From the NCBI GenBank assembly GCA_964365025.1, contig CAYIOJ010000002.1, positions 20,208 through 84,207 of the forward strand: DNA of 64,000 nucleotides, written 5' to 3'. Of the stretch, positions 3,286-63,809 are shown piece after piece (position 1 is the stretch's first letter; every line of letters begins with the position of its first letter). Source of the stretch: an uncultured Gammaproteobacteria bacterium (GTDB taxonomy: Bacteria; Patescibacteriota; Patescibacteriia; Magasanikbacterales; UBA10003). The notes beneath the pieces were generated by a model. It was not told the origin of the DNA and made no database searches. It was given only the letters and a program-made list of their open reading frames with translations. The translations under genes and the position numbers were made by a program.

Positions 3286-3309
3286 CACATTTTTTATATC
3301 CTGTATAAT
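3282..3309 (+). promoter_or_regulatory. Sigma70-like promoter (TTGACA-16-TATAAT) in front of a ~200-nt leader before rplJ
   Basis: TTGACA lies at 3282-3287 and TATAAT at 3304-3309. A long untranslated leader runs up to rplJ, consistent with an L10-leader type autoregulatory region. Confidence 0.55.
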
Positions 3310-3515
3310 ATAGTTAACCATAGACAGCAGGTGGCCGATTTGGCCTTAATTGCCTGCCGAGGTTTGAGCTAAAAGTGCCTGTTTAAGGCGTTTTAAGGTC
3401 GAAGCCAACCGTAGATTCTGTGGTAAAACACAGTTTTTTTATAATTTCAAAGGCCGAACAGGTTGAAAAAATTATTTTTCAATTTGTGAGGCCTGCCGAA
3501 ATTTCAAACTTGTTT

Positions 3516-4037
3516 ATGCCAAAAACACGAGATGAAAAGACACAAATCGTAGCTGATTTGACTAAACTCTTTAAAGAGATGAAATCGGCTGTTTTTGCCG
3601 ATTTTAAGGGTTTAAAGGTCAAAAACATCACTGAATTGCGCCGGCTTTGCCAAGGACAAAAAGTTTCCTATGGTCTGGCCAAAAAAACATTAATTCGGCT
3701 GGCCGCGAAAAACGCCGGTGTGGATTTTAATCCCGACAGCGTTGACGGTTCTTACGCTTTGGCTTTTGGGTTGGAAGACGAGGTCGCGCCGGCCAAAGTG
3801 TTGGCGGATTTTGCCAAAAAGCATGAGGCCTTGAAAATTCTCGGCGGCATTTTGGAGGGCAAGATGGTGGACAAGGTGGTCATTGGCTCCTTGGCCAAAT
3901 TGCCAAGCAAGCCGGAACTTCTGGCCAAATTGGTTGGTTCTTTGCAATCACCCATTTCCGGTATGGTCAATGTTTTAGCCGGTAATTTGCGCGGTTTAGT
4001 GCAAGTTCTTAATGCTTACCAAAAATCTAAAGCTTAA
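3516..4037 (+). CDS. rplJ: 50S ribosomal protein L10
   Basis: The L10 pattern begins at [15 protein letters not shown]. The ORF opens at 3420 but the conserved start is the Met at 3516. rplL follows. Confidence 0.85.
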
Positions 4038-4048
4038 TTAAAAAATAT

Positions 4049-4450
4049 ATGTCTGACGAACAAAAAAAAGAAGTGCCTGAAAAATTCAAGGCCTTAGTTG
4101 AACAGATTGAAAAATTGTCTGTTCTTGACCTTGCCGAATTGGTGAAGGTTTTAGAGGAAAAATTCGGCGTTTCCGCCGCCGCGCCAGTCGCAGTCGCGGC
4201 TGTCGGAGCCGGAGCGTCCGCGCCAGCCGAGGAAGAAAAGTCATCCTTCAACGTGGAATTGATTGAAGCCGGCGGCAACAAAATCGCGGTGATTAAAGTC
4301 ATTCGCGAAGTTACCGGTTTGGGTCTGGCCGATGCCAAGGGTTTGGTTGACGGCGCTCCCAAGATGGTTAAAGAGGGTGTGGATAAGGCCACAGCCGAGT
4401 CCATTCAAAAGAAGGTGACTGAAGCCGGCGGTAAGGTGACCTTAAAATAA
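4049..4450 (+). CDS. rplL: 50S ribosomal protein L7/L12
   Basis: It shows the Ala/Val-rich hinge and the C-terminal domain [33 protein letters not shown]. Confidence 0.9.
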
Positions 4451-4463
4451 TTTTTAAGCAAAT

Positions 4464-4492
4464 ACTAAAAAATTCCTCACGGGGAATTTTTT
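4464..4492. terminator. Bidirectional rho-independent terminator between rplL and the convergent minus-strand gene
   Basis: AAAAAATTCC-TCAC-GGGGAATTTTTT hairpin with flanking T and A runs. Confidence 0.5.
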
Positions 4493-6677
4493 AGTATTCA
4501 ATACTTTGTATTTTCATTCCGTTCAACAAGTAGATTGTTTTATTTTTCTCGTTGACGCTTAGATCTTGAAGGTCGGTGAATTCTTCGGCTGTGTATTGGG
4601 CAACCAATTTTTGCGTTTTTTTATTCCAGATAATCACTCGTTTTTGTCCCGGGTCTAGAATAAAGATGTTCTGCGAATCGGGCGAGCTAAAAATTTTTAC
4701 GGCTGAATTTAACTGCGGGTCTAGCGCGGAGAGCGAAAAATTTTGTAAATGGCCGCTGTCCAGTTTTGACACGCTGCCGTAAGGCCTCGCAATGTAGATT
4801 GATCCATCAATGGCCCAGCCGGTAAGGTCAGACACTGAAATATCTTCTTTGAGCCAACCGGCTCCTTTGGCAAAACCGGTGGTGCTTTCTTTGTGTTTGG
4901 CAATCAGATTATTTTTTACATCCAATGAGTACAGATAAGTATTATAATGGCCAATGAGTTTTATTTCCGAATCAGTCTTGGGCCAGATTATTTCCAAAGA
5001 AGAAAATTCGCCTGTTTTGAGGTCAAATTGCGTCAGTCGGTCTTTGCCATTGAGCAGTAACACTAATCCGTCTTTTTTTACGAATTTATATTTTAATTCT
5101 CCCGCAAGAGGCGAAGTTAAGGCGACTGATGTTTTGCTTTTTGTGTCGTATCGCCAAAGATTAGTATCATTATTGCAGAAAAAGAAAAAAGATAATTTGG
5201 CGGCGATAAGGTCGGTCGGTTGGCAAGTTAGATTTAGCGCGGACAAATCAGCCGCGAGTGTTGGCACAATCGTTTTCAGGTGGCGGAGCTTAGCGGCGAT
5301 AATTTCGGCGTTGACGAGTAAATTTTGCCGCATGGTTCGCCGGTTGGCGGAATTTTGGGGAAATTCAGTTAGGTCATTTTTAATTTCTGTCAGCAATTTT
5401 TCAGCTTGTTCTTCGTCTTTATAGATAATGCTTGATTCGGCTTGGTCTATTTTTTCTTTAATGCCATTCAACAGTTGATTATATTTTTCCTGCTCCAAAC
5501 GATTGTTGTTTTGTTGATAACTCCAGCCCACGCTTACGATAAAAATCGCGCCAACGATCAGCGCTCCTAAAAATAAGTAGCGGCGAGTCGGCGGTAATGC
5601 TAGAATTTTGGCGCGTGGGGCTTGCCAGAGTTTTTGGGCCAGCGCGCGCAGGGCGGTGATACCGGCTGTTTTTTTCACTATCGGTTCAGTCGGCGGCTTG
5701 GCCGTTCGGCTGAAAAATTTAATCATTTCACGCCAGGTTTTTTTCATCTGCCCCTGCCAGCCGGTCAGGCGGTTATAGATTTTTGTGATTTTTTTAATTG
5801 TTTCCAAATCCGAATCCTGTTTATTTTTCGTTTTGTTAAAGAATTTTTTGAACATCAGCCAAAGTGAAGGCGACAGGATGTTTTCCGTCTCTTTTTCTTT
5901 ATACACTAAGCGGCGGATAGAATTGTCCGGCGTAACGCGTTCGGTGGAAGCGATTTGAATTTGCCTTTGCGCCGATGGCGTTAAAAGATTAATAATCAAC
6001 CCGCCGAAAGAAAGCTGGTTGGCGATTTGATTTAAAGTTTTTTCCAAATAACGGCAGGCGTTTTCCATTGGGCGCGACAAAATAATTTTTTCCAAGCGGT
6101 CAATGGTAATAAAATCAAAAACCGCGCCCGTGCAAAATATAACCAGATTGTCCGGGCTCAAATCACCGGAAACCAGATTAGAGAAAAAAGGCCCGGCTTC
6201 TTTCTGTCTATCTCCGTAAGTTTTAATTAGGTCAAGATGGCGGTATTTTTCGCCGTCTTTAAAAATGATGTAGCCGCTAATGCGGCCATTGAAAGTAAAT
6301 TGTAATTGATTATTTTTTATGCCGCCAAAAATAAAATTCAATTCGTTTAATTCATCGGGTTTAAGCATTTGGCCGATCAGACGGTTGGCCCACTCCAAAT
6401 TGTGTTCAAAAGCGTTGTCCGGGTTGTCTTTGATTTCTTCCTCATAGTGACGAAGCATTTGATTGATGAGAATCGGCATTGTTTCTCTAAGATGGGGCGT
6501 CGGATGATATTCCACCATGGCGAAAAGACGGCTCATCGGCAGATTGTGCTTGGGCGGCGGCGCCAAAGACAAAAGTACGCGCGAATGGTCTTTGAGCGAC
6601 GACTGGGTGAGGAAGGTATTTAGTTCAGTGGAATTAATTGGCATAAACAAAGCGGCGTTTGACTGCGCACCTTGCAT
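4491..6677 (-). CDS. Single-pass membrane protein with a cytoplasmic N-terminal domain (possibly PP2C-like) and an extracytoplasmic beta-propeller-like repeat domain
   Basis: 728 aa with one TM helix (YLFLGALIVGAIFIVSVGW) near residue 360. The N-terminal domain has a weak PP2C-like segment (VSGDLSPDNLVIFCTGAVFDF). The C-terminal half is repetitive and beta-rich. Confidence 0.5.
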   Translation of the reverse strand: MQGAQSNAALFMPINSTELNTFLTQSSLKDHSRVLLSLAPPPKHNLPMSRLFAMVEYHPTPHLRETMPILINQMLRHYEEEIKDNPDNAFEHNLEWANRLIGQMLKPDELNELNFIFGGIKNNQLQFTFNGRISGYIIFKDGEKYRHLDLIKTYGDRQKEAGPFFSNLVSGDLSPDNLVIFCTGAVFDFITIDRLEKIILSRPMENACRYLEKTLNQIANQLSFGGLIINLLTPSAQRQIQIASTERVTPDNSIRRLVYKEKETENILSPSLWLMFKKFFNKTKNKQDSDLETIKKITKIYNRLTGWQGQMKKTWREMIKFFSRTAKPPTEPIVKKTAGITALRALAQKLWQAPRAKILALPPTRRYLFLGALIVGAIFIVSVGWSYQQNNNRLEQEKYNQLLNGIKEKIDQAESSIIYKDEEQAEKLLTEIKNDLTEFPQNSANRRTMRQNLLVNAEIIAAKLRHLKTIVPTLAADLSALNLTCQPTDLIAAKLSFFFFCNNDTNLWRYDTKSKTSVALTSPLAGELKYKFVKKDGLVLLLNGKDRLTQFDLKTGEFSSLEIIWPKTDSEIKLIGHYNTYLYSLDVKNNLIAKHKESTTGFAKGAGWLKEDISVSDLTGWAIDGSIYIARPYGSVSKLDSGHLQNFSLSALDPQLNSAVKIFSSPDSQNIFILDPGQKRVIIWNKKTQKLVAQYTAEEFTDLQDLSVNEKNKTIYLLNGMKIQSIEY

Positions 6678-14671: not shown

Positions 14672-14706
14672 GAGATTGCTTCATCGCTTCGTTCCTCGCA
14701 ATGACA
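14672..14706. repeat. GTCATTGCGAG...GAAGCAATC family element in reverse orientation
   Basis: The sequence is GAGATTGCTTCATCGCTTCGTTCCTCGCAATGACAG. Confidence 0.7.
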
Positions 14707-14773: not shown

Positions 14774-15784
14774 ATGCTTATCGGCCATTCAGCCCAGCTA
14801 AATTTTTTACGCCGTTCCTTTGATAGCGGTCGTTTGGCGCACGCCTATATTTTCGTCGGGCCGGAAGGAGTAGGCAAAAAAAAAATGGCGTTGGAATTGG
14901 CTAATTGGTGTTTGGAGCGAATCGCACCTGCTGGATTCCCGATCAGGTCGGGAATGACAACGGCTGAATCAGCTGATGATTTAAGCCATGACTGGCAGAT
15001 CAAATTTGTGGAGCGGGTTTATGACGATAAAACCGGCAAACTGCGCAAAGACATTTCCATTAAACAAATTCATGAAATTCGGGAATCGCTAAATCATCAT
15101 TCTTTGGTAAGTTCCTATAAAATTGTTATAATAGATTCAGCCGAGCGGATGAGCATTGGCGCGGCTAATGCCTTGCTTAAAACTTTGGAAGAGCCCAGCC
15201 CCAAAACATTGATTGTGCTTTTGACTATTGATGAAAAGGCCTTGCCCAGCACCATTGTTTCGCGCTGTCAGGTCGTGCGATTTTATCAAGTGCCAACCAA
15301 GGAAATTTATGAGGCGTTGGTGGAAAAAGGTGTGAAGAGAGACGCGGCTTTGGAAACCGCCCGTTTGTCTTTTGGTTCGCCCGGCCGGGCGCTTAATTTA
15401 TTGGCTGATTCTGAAAAATTAAAATTTTGTCAAGATGAACGCGCTCGATTTTGGGAATTATTAAAAAATGGACTGGCGGAAAGATTGGCGCGAGTGGCTG
15501 ATTTATTCGGGAGCAAAGACGACCACATGGAAGCGCGCGATAAATTGATTGAAATTTTGCAGATTTGGCAGATTTTGTGGCGCGATATTTTGTCGGCGCG
15601 GCAGGGAGCGGTGGAACTGGTGGCCAATATTTCCGAGGAAGAGGAAATCCAAAAACAAACCAAAAGATACAGTGGGGCGCAAATCTTTGGCGTGATTAAA
15701 AAAATTGAAGAATCAATTGTCCTGTTGCGCCAAAACATCAATCCAAAATTGATAATTGAAAATTTAATTTTGAGTTTTTATTAA
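14774..15784 (+). CDS. holB: DNA polymerase III delta' subunit
   Basis: Carries HAYIFVGPEGVGKKK and the SRCQ motif. An extra segment after the P-loop (PAGFPIRSGMTT) is encoded by a small hairpin ATTCCCGA-TCAGG-TCGGGAAT. Confidence 0.8.
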   Translation: MLIGHSAQLNFLRRSFDSGRLAHAYIFVGPEGVGKKKMALELANWCLERIAPAGFPIRSGMTTAESADDLSHDWQIKFVERVYDDKTGKLRKDISIKQIHEIRESLNHHSLVSSYKIVIIDSAERMSIGAANALLKTLEEPSPKTLIVLLTIDEKALPSTIVSRCQVVRFYQVPTKEIYEALVEKGVKRDAALETARLSFGSPGRALNLLADSEKLKFCQDERARFWELLKNGLAERLARVADLFGSKDDHMEARDKLIEILQIWQILWRDILSARQGAVELVANISEEEEIQKQTKRYSGAQIFGVIKKIEESIVLLRQNINPKLIIENLILSFY

Positions 15785-15794
15785 AAATAGAAAA

Positions 15795-15872
15795 TGTCAT
15801 GCTGAATTTATTTCAGCATCTCATGAGATCCCGAAACCTGCCTACCGGACAGGCAGGCAAGTTCGGGATGAC
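15795..15872. repeat. Composite hairpin repeat: ATGCTGAA...TTCAGCAT plus ATCCCGAA...TTCGGGAT. The inverted partner lies at 16981-17040
   Basis: The left copy is TGTCATGCTGAATTTATTTCAGCATCTCATGAGATCCCGAAAC[CTGCCTACCGGACAGGCAGG]CAAGTTCGGGATGAC. Its reverse complement matches 16981-17040 except for the bracketed CTGCC...GGCAGG module. Confidence 0.75.
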
Positions 15873-16960: not shown

Positions 16961-16980
16961 CCCCGATGAATATCGGGGTC

Positions 16981-17040
16981 ATCCCGAACTTGTTTCGGGA
17001 TCTTATTTCTAGAAGATGCTGAAACAAGTTCAGCATGACA
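16981..17040. repeat. Inverted partner of the composite hairpin repeat at 15795-15872
   Basis: The sequence is ATCCCGAACTTGTTTCGGGATCTTATTTCTAGAAGATGCTGAAACAAGTTCAGCATGACA. A GACCCCGAT-GAAT-ATCGGGGTC hairpin precedes it at 16958-16980. Confidence 0.75.
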
Positions 17041-21796: not shown

Positions 21797-22533
21797 GTAT
21801 GTCAAAATTAATTGTTGCCAATTGGAAAATGTATCTTTCGCCTAAAAATTCGGTGGAAATTTTTAGCGTTGCGGCGGGGAAAAGGGGCGTGGTGATTTGT
21901 CCGTCTTTTGTGGCTTTGAATCAATTGAGCTCTTTGGCTAAAAAGAATGGGGTTAGTTTGGGCGCGCAAAATTGTTTTTGGGCGGATCGCGGGGCGTATA
22001 CCGGTGAAATTTCTCCCGCGGATTTGAAAGAGATTGGCTGCGAATATGTGATTGTCGGGCACAGCGAACGGCGCGGTTATTTGGCGGAAACCGATGAAAT
22101 AATCGGGAAAAAATTGCAAGCCGGTTTGGCCGCCGGTTTGATTCCCATTTTATGCGTGGGCGAAAATGAAACCGAAAAAAAGGCGGGGGACGCCAACGAA
22201 CGCGTTGCCGAGCAGTTGGAAAAAGCTTTATCGGGGCTCGGCCGGTTGCCAGCCGGGCAGAAAATTATTATTGCCTATGAACCGGTCTGGGCCATTGGCA
22301 CAGGCCAGGCCTGCAGTCCCGAGGCGGCAGGGGAAATGCACCGATTGATAAAAGATAAAGTGGCTGAATTGATTGGCGTAAAAAATGTTTTAGCGCTTTA
22401 CGGCGGCAGTGTGGATGATAAAAATATCGCGAGCTATTTGGAAAAAGCGGAGATTGACGGCGCCTTGGTCGGCGGAGCCAGCGCTAAAAAAGATATTTTT
22501 GCGTCACTGCTTAACGCGGCCGCTAATTTTTAA
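21793..22533 (+). CDS. tpiA: Triosephosphate isomerase
   Basis: Carries ANWKM, VGHSERR and AYEPVWAIGTG. Confidence 0.9.
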   Translation: MSMSKLIVANWKMYLSPKNSVEIFSVAAGKRGVVICPSFVALNQLSSLAKKNGVSLGAQNCFWADRGAYTGEISPADLKEIGCEYVIVGHSERRGYLAETDEIIGKKLQAGLAAGLIPILCVGENETEKKAGDANERVAEQLEKALSGLGRLPAGQKIIIAYEPVWAIGTGQACSPEAAGEMHRLIKDKVAELIGVKNVLALYGGSVDDKNIASYLEKAEIDGALVGGASAKKDIFASLLNAAANF

Positions 22534-24051: not shown

Positions 24052-24123
24052 GTCATTGCGAGCCAGACTGTCCGAGAATTGTCATTGCGAGGAGCAAAGC
24101 GACGAAGCAATCTAGTAGCTCGG
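24052..24123. repeat. Two tandem partial copies of the GTCATTGCGAG...GAAGCAATC element
   Basis: GTCATTGCGAGCCAGACTGTCCGAGAATT followed by GTCATTGCGAGGAGCAAAGCGACGAAGCAATCTAG. Confidence 0.7.
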
Positions 24124-37069: not shown

Positions 37070-37099
37070 AAAACTCCTCTGATTTTCAGAGGAGTTTTT
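37070..37099. terminator. Bidirectional rho-independent terminator between the SPFH gene and convergent tsaE
   Basis: AAAACTCCTCTGA-TTT-TCAGAGGAGTTTTT. Confidence 0.8.
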
Positions 37100-37526
37100 G
37101 ATTTATTGAGATTTTTCTTTCGCCATTTTTTAGAATTGAGATTTTGATTTTTCGCGTTTGGAATTTTTTCAGCAGCGGCGCGATTTTTTCCGGCCATTCA
37201 ATGGCGCAGACAGTATCAGGCGCGGCCAAGTGCTCCAAAAGTCCGATGTCAATAACTTCTTGCGTTGAATGAAGACGATAGCAATCCAGATGAACAAATT
37301 GTTTTATCTTTTTTTGTTTTGGTAATTTATAAATTTTCATTAAATTAAAACTCGGACTGCGCACGGTTTGCTTAATGCCAAATCCAGACGCCAATCCTTT
37401 GATAAAAACAGTTTTGCCAGCTCCCAATTCTCCGGACAATGTTAAAATATCGCCCCCGCGCAAACCCGTGGCGATATTTTTGCCTAGATTGAAAGTTTGG
37501 GTTGTGTTATTGGAGTAGTAAAGCAT
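37086..37526 (-). CDS. tsaE: tRNA threonylcarbamoyladenosine biosynthesis ATPase TsaE
   Basis: Walker A GELGAGKT, then HLDCYRL and WPEKI motifs, 146 aa. It lies in the same open frame as folD upstream (see repeat 37531-37590). Confidence 0.75.
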   Translation of the reverse strand: MLYYSNNTTQTFNLGKNIATGLRGGDILTLSGELGAGKTVFIKGLASGFGIKQTVRSPSFNLMKIYKLPKQKKIKQFVHLDCYRLHSTQEVIDIGLLEHLAAPDTVCAIEWPEKIAPLLKKFQTRKIKISILKNGERKISINQKLL

Positions 37527-38435
37527 ATTTATGTCATTGCGAGCGCCTGCCTGCCGGCAGGCAGGAAGCGAAGCAATCTCGCGCCATTTTACAGTCAATA
37601 AATATACATTTTCCAAAAGCATGGCCACGGTCATTGGCCCCACGCCGCCTGGCACCGGTGTAATCCAGCCATTTTTGTCGCGCGTTGATTCAAAATTTAC
37701 ATCGCCGCAGATCGCGCCACTGCCAACCTGACCAGCAGGCAGGGGCAGGCGATTGATACCAACATCAATCACTATTGCGCCATCTTTAAAATTATCGCCA
37801 CGCAAAAAATTCGGTTGACCAACAGCAATGATTACAATATCAAATTGTTTGGTTATTGAGCCATCGAATTGTTTAGAGTGAAGATGGGAAGCGTCCAGTC
37901 CTTTTTGTTTTAAAAATAATTCCAAGGGCTCGGTAAAAGCATCGCTGTTGCCGATGATAAGGCATTTTTTCGCGTCCAGGCCGGCATTTTTTCGCGCGTC
38001 TTCAATTAAGCGCCAAATTGCTTTGGCTAAAACAGGTTCCACAGCCGGTTGGCCTTCTCGCATTTTTTTTACATTATCAGGATGAAATCCATCAACATCT
38101 TTGGTCGGGTCAATCGCGGCAATCACGCTGTTTGGATTGAGGGGGGATGGGAGTGGCAACTGTATTAAGATACCGTGAATGTTCGGCGCGGCGTTTAACT
38201 CTTGAATTTTTTGAATAATAGTTTCTTCCGCGGCGTCAGTTGGAAAAAGATATTTTTCAAAATATATTTCGGCCTCGGCGCAGGCCTTTTCTTTCAGGCG
38301 CACATACAAATGCGAGGCCGGATCATTGCCAACCAAAATAACACCAAGCCCCGGTGTAATTCCCAAGGCGGCGATTTTGTCTTTCAATTCCGCTCGGATT
38401 TTTTTGGCCAATGAGCGGCCGTCAATTAAACGCAT
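37527..38435 (-). CDS. folD: Bifunctional methylenetetrahydrofolate dehydrogenase/cyclohydrolase. There is no stop codon before tsaE
   Basis: Carries LVGNDPASHLYVRLKEKAC and PVPGGVGPMTVAMLLEN. The reading frame continues through the repeat into tsaE. Confidence 0.8.
37531..37590. repeat. GTCATTGCGAG...GAAGCAATC element with an internal CCTGCCTGCCGGCAGGCAGG module. It bridges folD and tsaE in-frame
   Basis: On the minus strand it translates without stops as KWREIASLPACRQAGARNDIN, joining the FolD C-terminus to the TsaE start Met. Confidence 0.75.
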
Positions 38436-42994: not shown

Positions 42995-44620
42995 TCATTT
43001 GCCTCGACGGCTTCGTCGGGGCAGTTTTTTTACCATGTAAGTTTTTTGTAGTTTGTAACCAAGTTTTTTATAATATCCGCGCACGCCAATGCCAGAGATA
43101 ACTGCGATTGTATCCGCGCCGTGTTCGCGGGCGATTTTTTCCGCTTCGGCAATCAAGCGTCGACCCAAACCGCGATGTTGGCTGGCTTTTTTTGACCTTT
43201 GGCCAAGCGGCATAAGTTGGCCGTAAGTGTGCAGTTCGCGGATAAAAGCCGGATACAGGCCCCGGGCGTCCAGGCGCAGGCGGCAGAAAGCAAAAACCGC
43301 GCGCCGCGCCGTATCTTCAAAACTTAAAAAATATTCCGTGCCGCCGGACGCTTCATATTGATCAATAAATAATTTGATTTTGGCCGGATGACTAAGTTGT
43401 TGGTGCCCGATTTCTCGGCAACGCAAACATTGGCAGGTGAGTCCGTCTTCAACCATTTTAGCTTGAATTATTTGACGCAAGTTGGTCGCTAGATTGCCCG
43501 CGATTATTTCCGTGGAAGGAATGTCGCGAATCAGACGCGAGATTCGGCAATAGCGCGGAATAATTTTTGATTTTACTTTCATCAGCATGGCAATCAGTTT
43601 TTTATCAGCGTAGGGTTTGAATTGGCCTTTTTTATACCAGCGGTACAGTTCGGAATTGATAACAACCGTGCAGGGATAAATTTTAATCATATCCGGCCGC
43701 AAATCAGGGTCGGCAAAAATTTTTTCAAACATTTTGTAATCCTTGGTCGGAGTGGAGCCTGGCAATTGCGGCATTAAATGAAAATCAATTTTAAATCCAT
43801 AGCCGCGCAATAACGCGGTTGCTTTTTTCGCGTCTTCAATAGTATGCCCGCGTTTTGTTAGGCGCAAAATTTTGTTATCAGTATGTTGTATTCCCATTTC
43901 CACGCGAGTGCAACCCAAGATACGCATTTGCCCGGCTGTTTTATGAGTGATTAAATCCGGCCGTGTTTCCAAAGTCAGGCCGATCAGACGATGAGCCGCG
44001 GTTTCATTTTTTTTCTGCGTCATTGCGAGGGAGCGCAGCGACCGAAGCAATTTCGTTGATTTTGGTACAACGAGATTGCTTCGCTTCGCTCGCAATGACG
44101 CGGTAAACTCATTTGTCGCCCTAAAACACTCTTTGATAAACCAAACTTGATATTTCCAAGGATAAACGTTCCAGCTGCCGCCTTTTACAATAAGTTCAAT
44201 CTTGTCGGTTAGGTGCCCATTGTTGTAAAGCATCTGTAAGCGGGAAATAACTTGATTATACGGATTAAATTTGTTAAAATAAGCGCGTTGGGCAGCCGGC
44301 TCGCTTTTAAGATAACTTTTTGGCATGCCCGGCTCCAATGGGCAATAAATACACTGTCCCGGGCATGGCCAGGGCTTGGTCAAAACAGTGACGATGGCCA
44401 CGCCTGAAAGTGTGCGCACCGCGCGTTTTTGCAAAATGGATTCCAACAGCGCCGAGGATTTTGTTTTTTTTCCAGCAACCAGACGCCTATATTCTTTTAA
44501 AACTTCGGCTGTGGATGGCGCGCTGCGGAAATTCAAACGCGACCAACTGTTTTTCAATTCGTCAAGTCGTGGGCGCGTCAGGCCTTTCTGTCGGATTAAT
44601 TTTTTGATGAAAGTTTTCAT
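42995..44620 (-). CDS. elp3: Elp3-like radical-SAM/GNAT enzyme (elongator catalytic subunit homologue)
   Basis: Radical-SAM region (CPGQCIYCP) followed by a C-terminal GNAT domain (QHRGLGRRLIAEAEKIA). The ORF opens at 44722 but the Met at 44620 (MKTFIKK) is the likelier start. It contains an in-frame repeat at 44038-44120. Confidence 0.7.
   Translation of the reverse strand: MKTFIKKLIRQKGLTRPRLDELKNSWSRLNFRSAPSTAEVLKEYRRLVAGKKTKSSALLESILQKRAVRTLSGVAIVTVLTKPWPCPGQCIYCPLEPGMPKSYLKSEPAAQRAYFNKFNPYNQVISRLQMLYNNGHLTDKIELIVKGGSWNVYPWKYQVWFIKECFRATNEFTASLRAKRSNLVVPKSTKLLRSLRSLAMTQKKNETAAHRLIGLTLETRPDLITHKTAGQMRILGCTRVEMGIQHTDNKILRLTKRGHTIEDAKKATALLRGYGFKIDFHLMPQLPGSTPTKDYKMFEKIFADPDLRPDMIKIYPCTVVINSELYRWYKKGQFKPYADKKLIAMLMKVKSKIIPRYCRISRLIRDIPSTEIIAGNLATNLRQIIQAKMVEDGLTCQCLRCREIGHQQLSHPAKIKLFIDQYEASGGTEYFLSFEDTARRAVFAFCRLRLDARGLYPAFIRELHTYGQLMPLGQRSKKASQHRGLGRRLIAEAEKIAREHGADTIAVISGIGVRGYYKKLGYKLQKTYMVKKLPRRSRRGK
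44038..44120. repeat. Complete palindromic GTCATTGCGAG...GAAGCAATC element (83 bp) inserted in-frame in elp3
   Basis: The sequence is CGTCATTGCGAGGGAGCGCAGCGACCGAAGCAATTTCGTTGATTTTGGTACAACGAGATTGCTTCGCTTCGCTCGCAATGACG. On the minus strand it reads ASLRAKRSNLVVPKSTKLLRSLRSLAM. Confidence 0.75.
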
Positions 44621-44622
44621 GT

Positions 44623-45375
44623 ATGCATTTGAGCGAGGCAAAAAAGATAATAAAAAAAGTTGAAAATGATTACGACGCCGTGGCGCGCGACTGGGATACA
44701 TCGCGATTTTCCGCCAGAGCAAGTCAGATTAAAATTGCCAATCAAATAAAAAATGGCGAGAGATTGCTGGATGTTGGCTGCGGCAATGGTGTATTTTATC
44801 CTGTTTTAGCTGATAAGTCAATCAATTATGTGGGAATGGACATTAGTAAAAAATTATTGGCGTTGGCCAGTCAAAAAGCGCGAAAAATTAAGAGCGGGTC
44901 CAAGGTAAAATTTATTAAAGGCAGTATTACCAAATTGCCGTTTAGAAATAATCAATTTGATTGGGTGTGCGTTTTCGCGGTTTTGCATCATATTCCAAGT
45001 GAGGAATTACGATTGCGCTCGGCGCAAGAAATTTGGCGCGTGTTGAAACCCAGTGGCAAAGTAATAGTGACTGTTTGGAATATGTTTTCCAATTGGGCTG
45101 AAAAAAAATTTAACATCAATGAACAATTGAAAAATATTCACGAAGGATTTGACCATGGCGACGTAATAATTCCGTGGAAGGGGACTGTTGGCAAAGTAAT
45201 TCAAAGATACATGCGCGCGTTTGCTAAAAATGAATTGAGCAAATTATTTAAAGACGCGGGATTTAAAAAGGTTTCGACATATTACGCCATCAAAGAAATA
45301 GGAGTAAAATCACAGAATGCCAAAGAGGGGAAGAATTTGGTTTTGATGGCAAAAAAAGCAGGCGGAGGCAGATAA
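44623..45375 (+). CDS. Class I SAM-dependent methyltransferase, Trm9-like
   Basis: The N-terminal VENDYDAVARDWDTSRFSAR resembles the Trm9/ALKBH8 N-terminal pattern. Motif I is LDVGCGNGVF. The start lies 3 nt from the divergent elp3 start. Confidence 0.6.
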   Translation: MHLSEAKKIIKKVENDYDAVARDWDTSRFSARASQIKIANQIKNGERLLDVGCGNGVFYPVLADKSINYVGMDISKKLLALASQKARKIKSGSKVKFIKGSITKLPFRNNQFDWVCVFAVLHHIPSEELRLRSAQEIWRVLKPSGKVIVTVWNMFSNWAEKKFNINEQLKNIHEGFDHGDVIIPWKGTVGKVIQRYMRAFAKNELSKLFKDAGFKKVSTYYAIKEIGVKSQNAKEGKNLVLMAKKAGGGR

Positions 45376-45422
45376 TTTTTGAAGCGATGATATGTTTGAG
45401 CCAGATCGAGGCATCCTGCTAT

Positions 45423-45499
45423 AGGGGGCGCGCAAATATCTTTTTTTGCGCTGCGGACTCATCGCCGCGACTGCAAAAAAAGAAATTTGCGCGCCCCCT
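45423..45499. repeat. Type-2 palindromic element: outer inverted repeat AGGGGGCGCGCAAAT, inner TTTTTTTGC...GCAAAAAAA around a GCTGCGGACTCATCGCCGCGACTGC core
   Basis: Nested palindromes. The core matches the reverse complement of the core of the element at 47006-47073. Confidence 0.7.
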
Positions 45500-45509
45500 A
45501 ATCAAGAAT

Positions 45510-46994
45510 ATGGATTTAGCGACGATTAAAAAAATTCACTGCGTAGGCATTGGCGGAATTGGCGTATCAGCTATTGCCAAGTTTTTTTTGTCGCTCGGCG
45601 CGACTGTGACTGGTTCCGATGTTTCATCCTCGGTTATTACGCAGGATTTGGAAAAACGCGGAGTGAAAATTTTTTATGGACACAAGGCCGAAAATGTTTC
45701 AAATGATGTTGATTTAATAATTTATTCTCCTGCTGTGCCCAAAGACAATCCCGAGCGGCAAAAAGGCATCCAAGAATTATCTTATCCTGAATTTTTGGGA
45801 GAATTATCAAAACAATATTTTACCATCGCCATTTCCGGCACGCACGGCAAAAGCACCACTACGGCTTTGATTGGCTTGATTTTGGAGGCGGCGGGTTTTG
45901 ATCCATTGGTAATTGTCGGGTCGCGCGTGCCCGGCTGGGAGTTGGGCAATATCCGCCTTCCCGCGTCATTGCGAGCGCCTGCCCCTGCCTACCGGCAGGC
46001 AGGTGCCGACAAGGCAGGCGAAGCCGAAGCAATCCCGAACAATAAAAAAATTTTTGTGGTAGAAGCCTGCGAACATCAGGCCAATATGCTCAATTTGTGT
46101 CCGCAGGCCGTGGTAATCACCAATATAGAGCCGGACCATTTGGATTTTTATGGCAATTTTGATAATGTTAAAAGCGCTTTTCAAAAGTTCGTTCGTTTGG
46201 TTCCTAAAAATGGGCTGGTGATTTTTAATGGCGATAGAGAGGCGGAATTGGATTGGAATTATGCCAGGCCAAGCATGTGGAAATTAATTTGGCAGGTTTT
46301 ATTCAGCCGCCGCGTCAAATGGCGCAGTTTTGGTTTTAAGACGCCCAATGATTATCAGGCTCTGGATAGAGAAGTAAAAAATGGCAATCAGTTTTTTAAT
46401 GTTCAAAGTGGGTTGTCCAAATTTCATGTAAAATTAAGTATCCCCGGTAAGTTTAACGCGTATAATGCTTTGGCAGCCATGGCTGTGGTGCTGGAACTTG
46501 GCGCACCAGTGGAAGTTTGTCAGAAAGTTTTAGCGAATTTCAAAGGTATTTGGCGCCGGTTTGAAATTTTAAAAGAAAAGCCATTGATTATTTCCGATTA
46601 TGGCCACCACCCGACAGCTATTGCCGAAACTGTGAAGGCCGCGCGCGAATTTTATCCCGGTCGGCGCGTGGTTTTGGTGTATCAGCCGCATCAGCATCAT
46701 AGAACAAAAATGTTATTCAATGATTTTGTTTCGGCTTTGGCTTTACCAGATGTATTAATTTTATCAGATATATATGATGTGGCAGGCAGAGAAGAGGTAA
46801 CAGATCAAGATGTAAGTTCTGAAAAGATTTTGGAGGCGATAAAAGTGTCGGGTGGAGCGGGCGAGTATTTTTACAGTGGCGATTTGGCCACCACCGAACG
46901 ATTAGCGCGAGAGATTATAAAAGAAAGCGATGTTATATTGGTGATGGGAGCTGGGGATGTAGATATCATTGCCAGGCATCTATCTATATTTTGA
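45510..46994 (+). CDS. murC: UDP-N-acetylmuramate--L-alanine ligase
   Basis: Carries GIGGIGVSAIA, GTHGKSTTT and a C-terminal Mur ligase domain. The conserved start is the Met at 45510. A 26-aa in-frame repeat insertion lies at 45964-46034. Confidence 0.85.
   Translation: MDLATIKKIHCVGIGGIGVSAIAKFFLSLGATVTGSDVSSSVITQDLEKRGVKIFYGHKAENVSNDVDLIIYSPAVPKDNPERQKGIQELSYPEFLGELSKQYFTIAISGTHGKSTTTALIGLILEAAGFDPLVIVGSRVPGWELGNIRLPASLRAPAPAYRQAGADKAGEAEAIPNNKKIFVVEACEHQANMLNLCPQAVVITNIEPDHLDFYGNFDNVKSAFQKFVRLVPKNGLVIFNGDREAELDWNYARPSMWKLIWQVLFSRRVKWRSFGFKTPNDYQALDREVKNGNQFFNVQSGLSKFHVKLSIPGKFNAYNALAAMAVVLELGAPVEVCQKVLANFKGIWRRFEILKEKPLIISDYGHHPTAIAETVKAAREFYPGRRVVLVYQPHQHHRTKMLFNDFVSALALPDVLILSDIYDVAGREEVTDQDVSSEKILEAIKVSGGAGEYFYSGDLATTERLAREIIKESDVILVMGAGDVDIIARHLSIF
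45964..46034. repeat. GTCATTGCGAG...GAAGCAATC element (with a CCTGCC...GGCAGG module) inserted in-frame in murC
   Basis: The sequence is CGTCATTGCGAGCGCCTGCCCCTGCCTACCGGCAGGCAGGTGCCGACAAGGCAGGCGAAGCCGAAGCAATCC. It translates as ASLRAPAPAYRQAGADKAGEAEAIPN between conserved MurC segments. Confidence 0.75.
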
Positions 46995-48362: not shown

Positions 48363-48400
48363 CGTCATCCCCGCGAAAGCGGGGATCTAAACCTTATTTT

Positions 48401-52306: not shown

Positions 52307-53281
52307 ATGGAAATTATAAGCGAAGCTTCAAATTTCGGCGGGCTTCGCAAACCAAAAACAAGTTTTTGGTTTGTCTCATCCCTTGAAATTTTCAAAGATA
52401 CGGCGGAGAATCAGTCATTGATTGAGGAGGAGATTCAAAAGTACGGTTATGCCCCCGAGCATAATTTTTTTTGTTTTAGAGATGATCAGGGCGAGGGTAC
52501 GCAGAATTGGCTTTTCAAAACCGACAAGGGTTCAATTTTAGCGCGCCGGGAAGATGAAGTTTGGTATCTTTTTTCCGAAATTCTCGCGCCGCCGCCTGAT
52601 AAGTTAAAAATTTTGTCGGAATTTTTAACGCATTGTTTCAACGATAAAAAAACAGATCGAGTCAGCGTGGAATTTGAAACTGATTTTTACCGCGAAGTAT
52701 TAAAATTTTTAAAATCATCGCCGTGGCGCGCTTGTACTGTAAATTATTCTTTAACTTGGCCGATTTTTGATTTAACAAAATGGAATCCGGAATTGCCGGG
52801 AGGCGAGTGGAAAAAACTGCGTTATCAAATCGGATTGTTTTATCGCCGGCATAAAGTGGAAATAGTTGACGCCCGCGATTGTAAGCCGGATGATTTGAAA
52901 AAAATAGTGGAAGCGTGGAGAAAAAAACGGCAAGGTGGAGACAGGAGTTATGATTACCATTATTTGAATTTGATTGATAATAATTTTGCTGGCGTAAAAT
53001 TTTGCCGTGTTTTTGTAGTAGATGGCGCGAAGGCTACCATTACAGCCGGTTGGGAGATCCCCAATCAACCATGTAGTTATTATTCAGCTGTGGGTTTGCA
53101 TAATTATTCTTGCGATTATTTGGGCGAGGCGGCTAATGTTGATGATTTATCGTTTTTAAAAAAGCAGGGTTATCAATTGGCGAATTTTGGCGGGGGGGAA
53201 GAAGAATTGACCGGATTTAAAATGAAATTTCATCCCCGCCGAACCTACGATACGCATGTTTTTTCAATTAAAAGGCGTTAA
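52307..53281 (+). CDS. Hypothetical protein. Weak resemblance to DUF2156, the MprF C-terminal-like aminoacyl-transferase fold
   Basis: 324 aa. The first ~28 codons are supplied by the 72-bp repeat (52320-52390). Downstream the sequence has a GNAT/FemAB-like feel (WNPELPGGEWKKLRYQIGLFYRR). The assignment is tentative. Confidence 0.35.
   Translation: MEIISEASNFGGLRKPKTSFWFVSSLEIFKDTAENQSLIEEEIQKYGYAPEHNFFCFRDDQGEGTQNWLFKTDKGSILARREDEVWYLFSEILAPPPDKLKILSEFLTHCFNDKKTDRVSVEFETDFYREVLKFLKSSPWRACTVNYSLTWPIFDLTKWNPELPGGEWKKLRYQIGLFYRRHKVEIVDARDCKPDDLKKIVEAWRKKRQGGDRSYDYHYLNLIDNNFAGVKFCRVFVVDGAKATITAGWEIPNQPCSYYSAVGLHNYSCDYLGEAANVDDLSFLKKQGYQLANFGGGEEELTGFKMKFHPRRTYDTHVFSIKRR
52320..52390. repeat. 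72-bp double-hairpin repeat, copy 2
   Basis: The sequence is GCGAAGCTTCAAATTTCGGCGGGCTTCGCAAACCAAAAACAAGTTTTTGGTTTGTCTCATCCCTTGAAATT. It overlaps the 5' end of ORF 52307-53281. Confidence 0.7.
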
Positions 53282-61921: not shown

Positions 61922-62320
61922 ATGATTTCTATGCGAGGAGAATCATTAATGGGTTACACCTACGATGAGGTAGAGGCGTACCGCCATGGCGCTTCTCTTT
62001 TGATTTGTTTCGCGGTCATTTTAATGTTTTTTGGCGGTTATTTTTCAGCGCAATTGGAATGGAAATGGCTGCAAATTTCCGCCTTGCTCGCGGCCTGGCA
62101 AACATTTCAGTATTTGGGCTCCATGGAAGTAAAAATGGATTTTTACACGATGATTATCAGAGTTATTGCGTCGCTTTTGGTCGGTCTGGTTTTCTGGTTG
62201 ATTTTTTTATGGGGTTTTTATGTCGGACCCAAGCACGCTTGGTGGGCCTTTTTGCCATTGGTTTTGGTTTATTTTATTTCGGCTAAATACATTCACAAGC
62301 CTTACAAACGCGGTCATTGA
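61922..62320 (+). CDS. Hypothetical 4-TM membrane protein
   Basis: 132 aa with four hydrophobic helices. No family recognised. Confidence 0.4.
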   Translation: MISMRGESLMGYTYDEVEAYRHGASLLICFAVILMFFGGYFSAQLEWKWLQISALLAAWQTFQYLGSMEVKMDFYTMIIRVIASLLVGLVFWLIFLWGFYVGPKHAWWAFLPLVLVYFISAKYIHKPYKRGH

Positions 62321-62321
62321 T

Positions 62322-63722
62322 ATGATTTCTATTGATTTCAGCTATTTTGATTGGTTTCTCAATTTTATTACCGTGGCCCCGCCGACCGAAGTGTATATCT
62401 ACCTTTTCACTCACGGCGGTTGGCTAATTTTATTTTTTGTCGTCTTTAAATCTTTTTGGCAGTTTTATCATCTTTCCCGCACCGGCGCGTATCTCGGAAA
62501 ACTGCCGTGGGTGCTTCTGGCAGTGGACATTCCCAAAGGCAATGAACAGACGCCAAAAGCGGTGGAGCAGATATTCGCGCACTTGGCCGGCGCTCACAAA
62601 ACACCTGATTTGGAGGAACAGTTTTTATACGGCTTTATGCCGGCTTGGTTTTCGTTTGAAATCGTGAGCATTGAGGGCTATATTCAATTTATTATCCGTA
62701 CTATTAAAAAATATCGCGATTTGGTGGAAGCCTCCATTTACGCGCAATACCCGGAAGCGGAAATCACTGAAATTGAAGATTATACCAATGATTTTCCGTC
62801 GCATTTTCCCAATAAAGAATACCAACTGTTCGGCACTGAATATATTCTTACCAATAAAGAGCAGAGTTATCCCATCCGCACTTACAAAGATTTTGAGCAC
62901 ACGGCCGCGGAAGATATTTTTAAAGACCCTATTGCCGCGCTTTTGGAAACATTCAGCCGTGTGGGCAAGGGCGAATTTACCGGTTTGCAGATTTTAGTGA
63001 AACCAATCAGCAACAGATGGAATAATTGGAAAGAGCACGGCGAGGCGGTGGTAAAAAAAATGATTGGAGCCAAGGTAAAAATTAAAGATTCTATTATTAG
63101 CAAACTTGGCAGCTTGCCCGGACAAGTTTTGGATACAACAGTTGAAGCAGTGGCCGGATACGCGGTGGGAGCGGAAGAAGCAATGAATAAAAAAGAAGAA
63201 GCGCCCTCTTTGATGTTGCACTTGCCGCCCGGATTTAAAGTTAACGTGGAAAAAGTGGAAACAAAAATCAGCAAGATTTGTTTTGCCACGAAAATCCGCT
63301 GGATTTATATGGCGAAGAAAGACATCTATAATCGCGCCAAAACCAGCTATGGCGTGACCGGCGCTTTTAAACAATATAATGTAGAAGATATGAACGGCCT
63401 TAAACCTGAATTTGCCTCAATTGGCACGCATGTGCATTATTTTATGATAAAGACGCGTCAAAATTGGCGCCGCACTCGCCTGATTAACGCTTATAAAGCG
63501 CGGAGCCGCTGGAAGGGCGCCATGGAATATCTTTTAAACATTGAAGAGCTGGCTTCGTTGTGGCACTTCCCGATGCTTACGGTCAAGGCGCCGATGGTCG
63601 CCGGCACTCAAGCCAAACGCGGCCAGCCGCCGGCTACATTGCCGGTGGAGAGAGAAGGTGGCTTGTTAAGGCCGGTGGAGAAAAAGGCTAAAGGCGCTCC
63701 GCCGCCGAATTTGCCGGTATAA
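62322..63722 (+). CDS. Hypothetical membrane-anchored protein with a large soluble domain
   Basis: N-terminal TM helix (WLILFFVVFKSFW) and a ~400-aa soluble region with no nucleotide-binding motifs. It precedes a coupling-protein-like ATPase gene. Confidence 0.4.
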   Translation: MISIDFSYFDWFLNFITVAPPTEVYIYLFTHGGWLILFFVVFKSFWQFYHLSRTGAYLGKLPWVLLAVDIPKGNEQTPKAVEQIFAHLAGAHKTPDLEEQFLYGFMPAWFSFEIVSIEGYIQFIIRTIKKYRDLVEASIYAQYPEAEITEIEDYTNDFPSHFPNKEYQLFGTEYILTNKEQSYPIRTYKDFEHTAAEDIFKDPIAALLETFSRVGKGEFTGLQILVKPISNRWNNWKEHGEAVVKKMIGAKVKIKDSIISKLGSLPGQVLDTTVEAVAGYAVGAEEAMNKKEEAPSLMLHLPPGFKVNVEKVETKISKICFATKIRWIYMAKKDIYNRAKTSYGVTGAFKQYNVEDMNGLKPEFASIGTHVHYFMIKTRQNWRRTRLINAYKARSRWKGAMEYLLNIEELASLWHFPMLTVKAPMVAGTQAKRGQPPATLPVEREGGLLRPVEKKAKGAPPPNLPV

Positions 63723-63728
63723 GTATAT

Positions 63729-63809
63729 TGTCATTGCGAGGAGGCGAAGCCGACGAAGCAATCTCATATCTAGAATTGCGAGATTGCTTCGCTACGCTCG
63801 CAATGACAG
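63729..63809. repeat. Complete palindromic GTCATTGCGAG...GAAGCAATC element (81 bp), intergenic
   Basis: The sequence is GTCATTGCGAGGAGGCGAAGCCGACGAAGCAATCTCATATCTAGAATTGCGAGATTGCTTCGCTACGCTCGCAATGAC. Confidence 0.75.

Follow-up and report, generated by a model that had tools for sequence, protein, structure and literature searches.

The window analysed here is a 64,000-nucleotide (nt) stretch of contig CAYIOJ010000002.1, which GTDB places in the Magasanikbacterales of the Patescibacteriota. Its subject is murC, the gene for UDP-N-acetylmuramate--L-alanine ligase, and a short dispersed repeat that lies inside it. The listed open reading frame (ORF) extends from 45387 to 46994, with MurC homologs beginning at about 45510 (MDLATIKK). 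The Pfam domains Mur_ligase, Mur_ligase_M and Mur_ligase_C are all present, and the window MurC matches MurC structures in the PDB with E of about 1e-74. The repeat occupies bp 45965–46034, is preceded by a C at 45964, and reads GTCATTGCGAG-CGCCTGCCCCTGCCTACCGGCAGGCAGGTGCCGACAAGGCAG-GCGAAGCC-GAAGCAATC. A sequence-only reading of the window had described it as a copy of a repeat family, carrying a CCTGCC..GGCAGG module, that adds 26 residues between ligase segments and leaves the frame intact. This is what we find: the family has dispersed copies in the window, the element reads in the unbroken frame as ASLRAPAPAYRQAGADKAGEAEAIPN, MurC residues 152–177, and other MurC proteins are without these residues. 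The same reading took the insert for a single copy of about 70 bp. The length of 70 bp is correct, but the murC copy is composite, that is, an old 28-nt core unit plus a lineage-specific, nested 42-nt palindrome.

The predicted junction peptides read ..RLPASLRAP.., ..GNIRLPASLRAPAPAYR.. and ..EAIPNNKK.. (..GEAEAIPNNKK..). Relative to the Haemophilus influenzae MurC structure (1gqq), the window protein has about 27 extra residues, query residues 140–179 spanning chain residues 155–167. In an alignment of 17 homologs, the distant MurC proteins read GNLRVGKG-xYFVVEACE at the insert site. The same 26 residues are found in P0001, a 99%-identical MurC from another assembly; thus, the insert is not an assembly artefact.

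An AlphaFold2 model of the window MurC has a mean predicted local distance difference test (pLDDT) score of 85.5 and a predicted TM-score of 0.87, and superimposes on 1p3d with TM-scores of 0.83–0.89. The sequence-only reading had suggested that the insert be aligned with other MurC proteins and checked for a surface loop. In the model it is a predicted disordered loop: residues 157–176 have pLDDT below 50 and no secondary structure. The insert lies between a short strand near residue 148 and the strand at 181–185 (FVVEA). E185 in the latter strand is the equivalent of the catalytic Glu173, the loop lying eight residues before the catalytic Glu strand. Because the insert is at the start of a strand, fold topology predicts that it should be at the edge of the sheet, facing away from the active site. 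The MurC homologs P0006, P0007 and P0010 (loci L126, L128 and L127), from other lineages of the Candidate Phyla Radiation (CPR), carry unrelated short tandem repeats, CGGAACTAA-like and TCCGCGTNA-like, in frame in the same turn. That is, the site tolerates insertions.

The repeat family, here named F1, has the general form (C/T)GTC-ATTGC-GAG-(variable mini-hairpin)-GAA-GCAAT-CCA. Its 11-bp head, GTCATTGCGAG, occurs nine times in the window against 0.95 expected, and none of 100 shuffles reached nine. F1 units are found at six places, the murC unit included (Table 1). The elp3-like gene, which encodes a radical-SAM/GNAT protein (42995–44722, minus strand), contains an inverted F1 pair that reads ..TASLRAKRSNLVVPKSTKLLRSLRSLAMTQ..; the in-frame elp3 copy of the sequence-only reading is therefore real. 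At a further site, FolD and TsaE form one 449-residue ORF (37086–38435, minus strand) that runs through an F1 unit (..WREIASLPACRQAGARNDINM..). In the related locus L002, folD and tsaE are separate, overlapping genes, and L005 has a unit at the same junction. Rfam gave no match at the repeats, either across the whole window at the gathering threshold or for bp 45800–46200 at E ≤ 1. Literature searches with the nucleotide motif (both strands) and with the typical encoded peptides returned only unrelated primer and peptide matches.

Table 1. F1 units and other CGTC-type hairpin repeats of the window, with the murC host gene.
Feature	Position	Strand	Remarks
murC (UDP-N-acetylmuramate--L-alanine ligase), host gene	45510..46994	+	Pfam, PDB, AlphaFold2 model
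F1 repeat unit in murC	45964..46036	+	tag C, head GTCATTGCGAG, variable apical part, GAAGCAATC, tail CC
Nested 42-nt GC-rich palindromic module CGCCTGCCCCTGCCTACCGGCAGGCAGGTGCCGACAAGGCAG in the murC unit	45976..46017	+	absent from orthologous units
Single F1 unit, intergenic	14674..14705	-	sequence
Truncated F1 head, then full F1 unit, between tRNA genes	24052..24112	+	sequence
F1 unit with nested CCTGCCTGCCGGCAGGCAGG module at the folD/tsaE junction	37533..37578	+	sequence
Inverted F1 pair, heads outward, 21-nt spacer, in frame in the elp3-like gene	44019..44099	.	folds, z = -8.4
Inverted F1 pair just after the stop codon of ORF 62220–63722	63730..63807	.	folds, z = -6.5
Canonical CGTC-1/NTS-like unit TGTCATTCCCGACCTGATCGGGAATCCA, in frame in a holB-like (DNA polymerase III delta'-like) gene, 14774–15784, reading ..GFPIRSGMT..	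14932..14958	-	sequence
Two CGTC-type hairpins, GTCATGCTGAA..TTCAGCATC and GTCATCCCGAA..TTCGGGATC, paired as a heterodimer with heads outward; the module (15837–15857) lies in the loop of the second	15796..15872	.	sequence
The same two hairpins, again as a head-out heterodimer, lacking the module	16978..17039	.	sequence
NTS-like unit CGTCATCCCCGCGAAAGCGGGGATCTA in a 38-nt intergenic gap	48364..48389	+	sequence

Orthologous genes record how the murC copy has changed. The best matches to the window MurC are from Candidatus Magasanikbacteria, and the gene order elp3-like/methyltransferase/murC/murB is kept in four related loci. At the same codon position, L001 has GTCATTGCGAG-GCGAATCC-GAAGCAATC (28 nt) and L002 has GTCATTGCGAG-GGAGCGCAGCGACC-GAAGCAATC (34 nt). 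L004 has an inverted pair at the murC loop (bp 1346–1421) and, in the central domain, a second in-frame single unit (bp 1807–1832; ..RLLRVARND..). In L005 only a remnant is present, CCG-CAATCC-GCCGCGGCC-AAA. The sequence-only reading had reasoned that its case would fail if related MurC proteins had the same residues without a nucleotide repeat signature, and had proposed looking for the element inside ORFs of related genomes. This does not refute it: what the relatives carry is not a loop without the repeat but shorter versions of the same nucleotide repeat, in murC of L001, L002 and L004, and the element is also found in the elp3-like gene of L001 and L005.

Among the five murC orthologs, 4-fold degenerate sites differ by 37–52%, and the synonymous divergences group the window with L001, and L002 with L004 and L005. 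L005 was considered as an empty site and rejected: it keeps the CAATCC tail and groups by divergence with the carriers L002 and L004, so the element was most likely lost there by deletion. The four carriers share exactly the same sequence at each terminus of the murC unit, a degree of conservation reached by only 4.4% of murC 11-mers and 7.2% of 9-mers. This suggests that the nucleotide sequence is constrained or that the copy has been homogenised with others. Of the elp3-like genes, those of the window, L001 and L005 carry the pair and that of L002 lacks it; the window and L001 pairs differ in their arms, and one appears flipped relative to the other. Shared sites with differing states, in both murC and elp3, indicate that the insertions are old, vertically inherited, and remodelled or lost lineage by lineage.

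The murC unit of the window corresponds to an L001-type unit with 42 nt added between GAG and GCGAAGCC. The CCTGCC..GGCAGG pattern has five matches in the window, at three places, against 0.06 expected. These places are 15837–15857, 37546–37565 and 45978–46003, each time in the apical part of a hairpin repeat. At 15837 the host is a different repeat, GTCATCCCGAACTTG (CCTGCCTGTCCGGTAGGCAGG) TTTCGGGATC, of which an empty version lies at 16978–17004. The module may have been inserted as a second-order element, or hairpin tips may recurrently expand into such palindromes, and the 42-nt murC version looks like a 20-nt core lengthened by slippage.

The sequence-only reading called the element palindromic. 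This is apt for F1 inverted pairs, which form long hairpins (z of -5.6 to -8.4), and for the nested module, but not for the basic unit: single F1 units, with z about 0, are not more foldable than shuffled sequence, and the murC copy reaches z = -2.5 owing only to its module. In 181 units from other genomes, belonging to many phyla, the middle is mostly CGNAGC, with any N, and makes a GC-GNA-GC mini-hairpin with the G before it. Other middles have the form GAG-(variable, compensated hairpin)-CGAC. Downstream of GCAAT, the tail resembles CCA: its second base is C in 117 units and T in 58, and its third is A in 99 and C in 65, the first base, C, being set by the pattern used in the search. The stem variants GTCGTTGC..GCAACC and GTCGCTGC..GCAGTC are compensatory; they are rare, and support a short F1 stem.

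Read directly from the sequence, five of the six F1 reading frames are stop-free, the one ending IASLRSQ-stop alone being closed. At least four are used by intragenic copies: SLR.. (murC and elp3), ..ARND (folD-tsaE and the second L004 murC unit), ..LAMT (elp3) and VIAS.. (a gammaproteobacterial uvrA). The preferred insertion frame that had been suspected from the common opening residues of the murC and elp3 copies (ASLRA) is thus not borne out.

How F1 relates to described repeats is considered next. The repetitive extragenic palindromic (REP) sequences tagged with CGTC have a CGTC or TGTC tag, a stem opening with AT, a 4–5 nt loop and a CCA tail; they occur mostly as inverted dimers and have no dedicated transposase (Di Nocera, De Gregorio & Rocco 2013, BMC Genomics 14:522, PMC3733652). 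The superfamily includes Rickettsia RPE-4 (CGTC-4) and RPE-6 (CGTC-1) and Neisseria dRS3 (PMC3733652). Many copies are read through inside genes of Rickettsia, Sphingomonas, Rhodopseudomonas and Coxiella, and in R. conorii the host genes include murB, uvrA/B/C, dnaE and polA (PMC3733652).

F1 resembles these REPs in its (C/T)GTC head, its A-T/T-A stem opening, its CCA-like tail, its inverted dimers, its intragenic read-through and the lack of an adjacent transposase. The tag is unpaired, C or T preceding GTC in 9/9 window units and, elsewhere, in 173 of the 181 units (C in 118, T in 55), and the 3-nt CCA tail is likewise unpaired. Inverted pairs are found in the window and, in number, elsewhere, and intragenic copies in murC, elp3, folD-tsaE and holB, the last being an NTS-like unit. 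F1 head-out pairs are arranged as are the intragenic dimers of R. conorii. Canonical CGTC-1-like units, GTCATTCCCGA..TCGGGAATCCA and GTCATCCCCGCGAAAGCGGGGATC, share the window with F1. In contrast to the 8–9 bp stem of the REPs, F1 opens with A-T then T-A and has only 5 Watson–Crick pairs (ATTGC/GCAAT), followed by a purine-rich GAG/GAA mismatch; its variable apical part is 4–60 nt instead of a 4–5 nt loop, and its single units are not predicted to fold. It falls outside the four described CGTC families, its CPR host group was not in the published survey (PMC3733652), and the identical F1 unit is common to many phyla.

The Neisseria CGTC-1 element, NTS, is a single-stranded DNA substrate that SsnA, a 94-residue GIY-YIG protein, binds and cuts (Chenal et al. 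2025, Nat Commun 16:2388, PMC11893778). In NTS, the GTC before the stem is critical for cleavage and the C after the stem for binding, whereas the loop is dispensable and can be extended; copies typically flank ssnA, cluster around particular genes and modulate transformation via SsnA (PMC11893778). Likewise, F1 has GTC directly 5′ of its stem, C directly 3′ of it, and a variable, extendable loop, and in other phyla it flanks small single-domain GIY-YIG genes. It differs in that the published consensus of the Ssn-related motif (SRM), HGTCWYN(0-2)YYVSBRHN(0-5)WNVSBRGN(0-2)RNCYNB, does not fit F1 consensus units; this pattern has no match in the window, and the canonical NTS, used as a control, does match it. 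No ssn-like gene is in the window, and copies in coding regions are left aside in the NTS study (PMC11893778).

The sequence-only reading had named the Rickettsia palindromic elements (RPEs) as the closest parallel. The comparison is apt, as RPE-4 and RPE-6 are members of the CGTC superfamily with the same head, tail and dimer arrangement, and the murC insert is an in-frame insertion in a conserved gene at a permissive site, as in the RPEs. RPE-1, said to have been described by Ogata et al. in 2000, is reportedly a selfish palindromic repeat found in frame in housekeeping genes, tolerated on protein surfaces and common to orthologs of related species. It is 100–150 bp long, confined to Rickettsia and unrelated in sequence, whereas F1 units measure 26–34 bp and occur across phyla. 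F1 is in none of the RPE sequence families; with CGTC-1 it shares only the head GTCATT and the tail AATCC. The CGTC-1 units, RPE-6 included, encode SFPRKRES or DSRFRGND, e.g., GTCATTCCCGCGAAAGCGGGAATCC (PMC3733652).

F1 is also reminiscent of the REPIN-RAYT system. In both, inverted pairs of short units make long hairpins, singles resemble remnants of pairs, vertical persistence is long, and a single-copy nuclease gene is flanked by the repeats. Unlike REPINs, which are almost exclusively extragenic and have a GTAG tag with a RAYT gene encoding an IS200-like Y1 (HUH) transposase, F1 has a CGTC or TGTC tag and is associated with GIY-YIG (PF01541) genes. The RepRanger paper does not cover the F1 family. 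Judged by its architecture, F1 is best placed with the CGTC-tagged REP and NTS-SRM elements, as a divergent family.

When one genome per species was scanned, the exact F1 unit turned up at at least 120 loci, in more than 100 genomes. The hosts include Alpha-, Gamma- and Deltaproteobacteria, Chloroflexota, Bacteroidota, Cyanobacteria, Planctomycetota, Zixibacteria, Omnitrophota, Helicobacter, Sporomusa and Patescibacteria. No dedicated neighbour recurred within 2 kb of the F1 units at 120 loci; only generic ABC/UvrA-type ATPases clustered, the L112 uvrA among them. GIY-YIG ORFs were also sought. A strict regular expression gave nothing real; a looser one combined with jackhmmer found genes at L072, L020 and L067. 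The L067 gene, on a Planctomycetota contig, was found by a profile search with a small GIY-YIG ORF from an F1 locus; it encodes 96 residues and has F1 units on both sides, heads outward. Its protein has more than 8000 relatives of 95–99 residues, about 70% identical across phyla.

Four L067-type genes, L129 to L132, were chosen without regard to repeats, from Deltaproteobacteria, Anaerolineales and Marinimicrobia metagenome-assembled genomes and one further contig. Each is accompanied, on one side or both, by F1-type units no more than about 130 nt away, which with L067 makes 5/5 genes of the subfamily, and one L129 unit has a core, GTCATTGCGAGGCGAAGCCGAAGCAATC, identical to that of the murC unit. 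The Tyr-Tyr-Glu spacing is the same in the L067 protein (Y9, Y20, E67) and in SsnA (Y6, Y17, E64). From the flanking of 5/5 genes and the SsnA-like residue spacing, F1 is very probably the cognate repeat of this Ssn-like subfamily. Short inverted F1 pairs resemble what would remain of the flanks if such a gene were deleted. NCBIfam assigned the small GIY-YIG proteins no class, and the PDB returned only a distant UPF0213 relative.

Three F1 loci of other genomes deserve separate mention. L112, from an uncultured gammaproteobacterium, has a uvrA with an in-frame F1 pair at about 2896–2921 (..VIASKAKQS..IATSPLAPRND..), echoing the reported bias of intragenic CGTC and GTAG REPs to repair genes. 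In L047 (Patescibacteria), an F1 pair at 3703–3793 provides the C-terminal ~40 residues and the stop of a 524-residue membrane protein (..SLRGSLATKQSPVSRNKSEIASLPSVARNDRQF, then stop). At L020 (Candidatus Doudnabacteria), F1 halves lie ~300 nt apart within 4092–4923, with 27-nt tandem repeats between them; the halves adjoin a divergent GIY-YIG ORF that contains an in-frame TAG, and an 85-nt segment is duplicated on either side.

We consider it likely that the murC insert is a small dispersed hairpin repeat that entered murC in the ancestor of this Magasanikbacteria clade, was retained in a permissive loop, and was later remodelled. The proposed steps are as follows. The F1 element would have survived in murC through a combination of a permissive surface turn of the central domain, a stop-free frame, and the addition of a multiple of three bases. 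It would be transcribed and translated as a disordered loop. Subsequently, the copy would have evolved in place, becoming a pair in one lineage, being mostly deleted in another, and gaining the 42-nt palindrome in the lineage of the window. An Ssn-dependent process acting on single-stranded DNA is the leading candidate for the spread of the family. We infer the translation of the insert, its neutrality for MurC, and the Ssn-type recognition and spread in this organism.

Several points weigh against this explanation. No clean empty site and no target-site duplication was found. The 64-kb window has no GIY-YIG ORF, so a partner enzyme in the source genome is only putative. F1 departs from the published stem (5 bp vs 8–9), loop (apex of 4–60 nt vs 4–5) and SRM consensus. 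Both the translation of the insert and the activity of the enlarged MurC are presumed, and the conserved termini could mark a function at the DNA or RNA level rather than neutrality.

A broader proposal, which we put forward tentatively and hold to be possible but doubtful, is that F1 is the cognate motif of a highly conserved Ssn-type GIY-YIG subfamily that moves horizontally across phyla. In CPR bacteria, whose genomes are gene-dense, it would have colonised the essential genes murC, holB, elp3 and folD-tsaE. Ongoing nuclease-dependent copying or gene conversion would keep the termini intact, actively remodelling protein loops and even fusing genes, and CCTGCC..GGCAGG would be a second-order invader of the apical loops.

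An unlikely, though not negligible, alternative is that the murC element is kept for a DNA- or RNA-level function, either as an Ssn-type nuclease target that modulates recombination or transformation near cell-wall genes, or as an mRNA hairpin that tunes murC translation, the peptide being a by-product. The termini, unchanged in four lineages in spite of the divergence at 4-fold sites, are consistent with such a function; yet concerted evolution with other copies would preserve them equally, and the interior differs freely between orthologs. The better-than-shuffled folding of the module-bearing murC copy also speaks for such a function, as does the clustering of Neisseria NTS near particular genes, with its effect on transformation via SsnA (PMC11893778). 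Nevertheless, both genes are intact where the element is largely lost (murC of L005) or the pair is missing (elp3 of L002). Copies also lie in unrelated genes and in intergenic gaps, and no nuclease gene was seen in the window.

It is highly improbable that the insert is untranslated, i.e., removed from the transcript as a mini-intron or bypassed by the ribosome in a translational hop. The idea arises only from the conserved termini and from the intervening sequences for which the rRNA genes of CPR bacteria are known; no direct evidence points to it. Every intragenic copy examined is stop-free and in phase (four murC lengths, three elp3, folD-tsaE, holB and the L112 uvrA), which removal before translation would not need. 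In addition, the insert has no Rfam match even at E ≤ 1, and the same units occur in non-coding DNA. Finally, a native MurC loop peculiar to this lineage, one that resembles the repeat by coincidence or that gave rise to the dispersed copies, is a hardly credible account of the 26 residues: related MurC proteins do have extra residues at the site, but these are encoded by the same nucleotide unit that recurs in further genes and between tRNA genes and is shared by more than 100 genomes from many phyla, and distant MurC proteins and solved structures are without the segment.

The phenomenon is one already described for Proteobacteria, and the murC case is a genuine and neat instance of it. New here are the CPR host, F1 as a divergent family linked to Ssn-like genes, the nested module, and a series of several genomes at a single codon position. 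CGTC/NTS-type hairpin repeats, until now described mainly in Proteobacteria, are also found in CPR bacteria (Patescibacteria), whose genomes have little intergenic space and in which the repeats come to lie within essential genes. The evolution of such an element within a protein can be followed step by step across five related genomes, as a single unit, a pair, a nested expansion and a near-complete deletion. A repeat of many phyla is tied to an Ssn-like GIY-YIG subfamily, and the published SRM consensus misses it. In databases, F1 is translated into many spurious 'hypothetical proteins' (..SLRGAKRRSNL.., ..CHCEERSDEAI.., ..LLRFARND.., ..CFASLAMT..). In annotation, such inserts should be treated as repeats, not as lineage-specific protein features.

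Other repeats in the window are as follows. The 5′ extension of the murC ORF contains, immediately before the gene's start, a 28-nt inverted repeat with arms at 45422–45449 and 45473–45500 that are 96% complementary; it may be a terminator or another repeat family, and a related arm lies at 22479–22503. An 88-nt direct repeat, 89% identical, is found at 1489–1576 and 52312–52399. An inverted relative of it, near 3435–3511, adjoins the ribosomal protein L10 leader (Rfam, 3300–3448).

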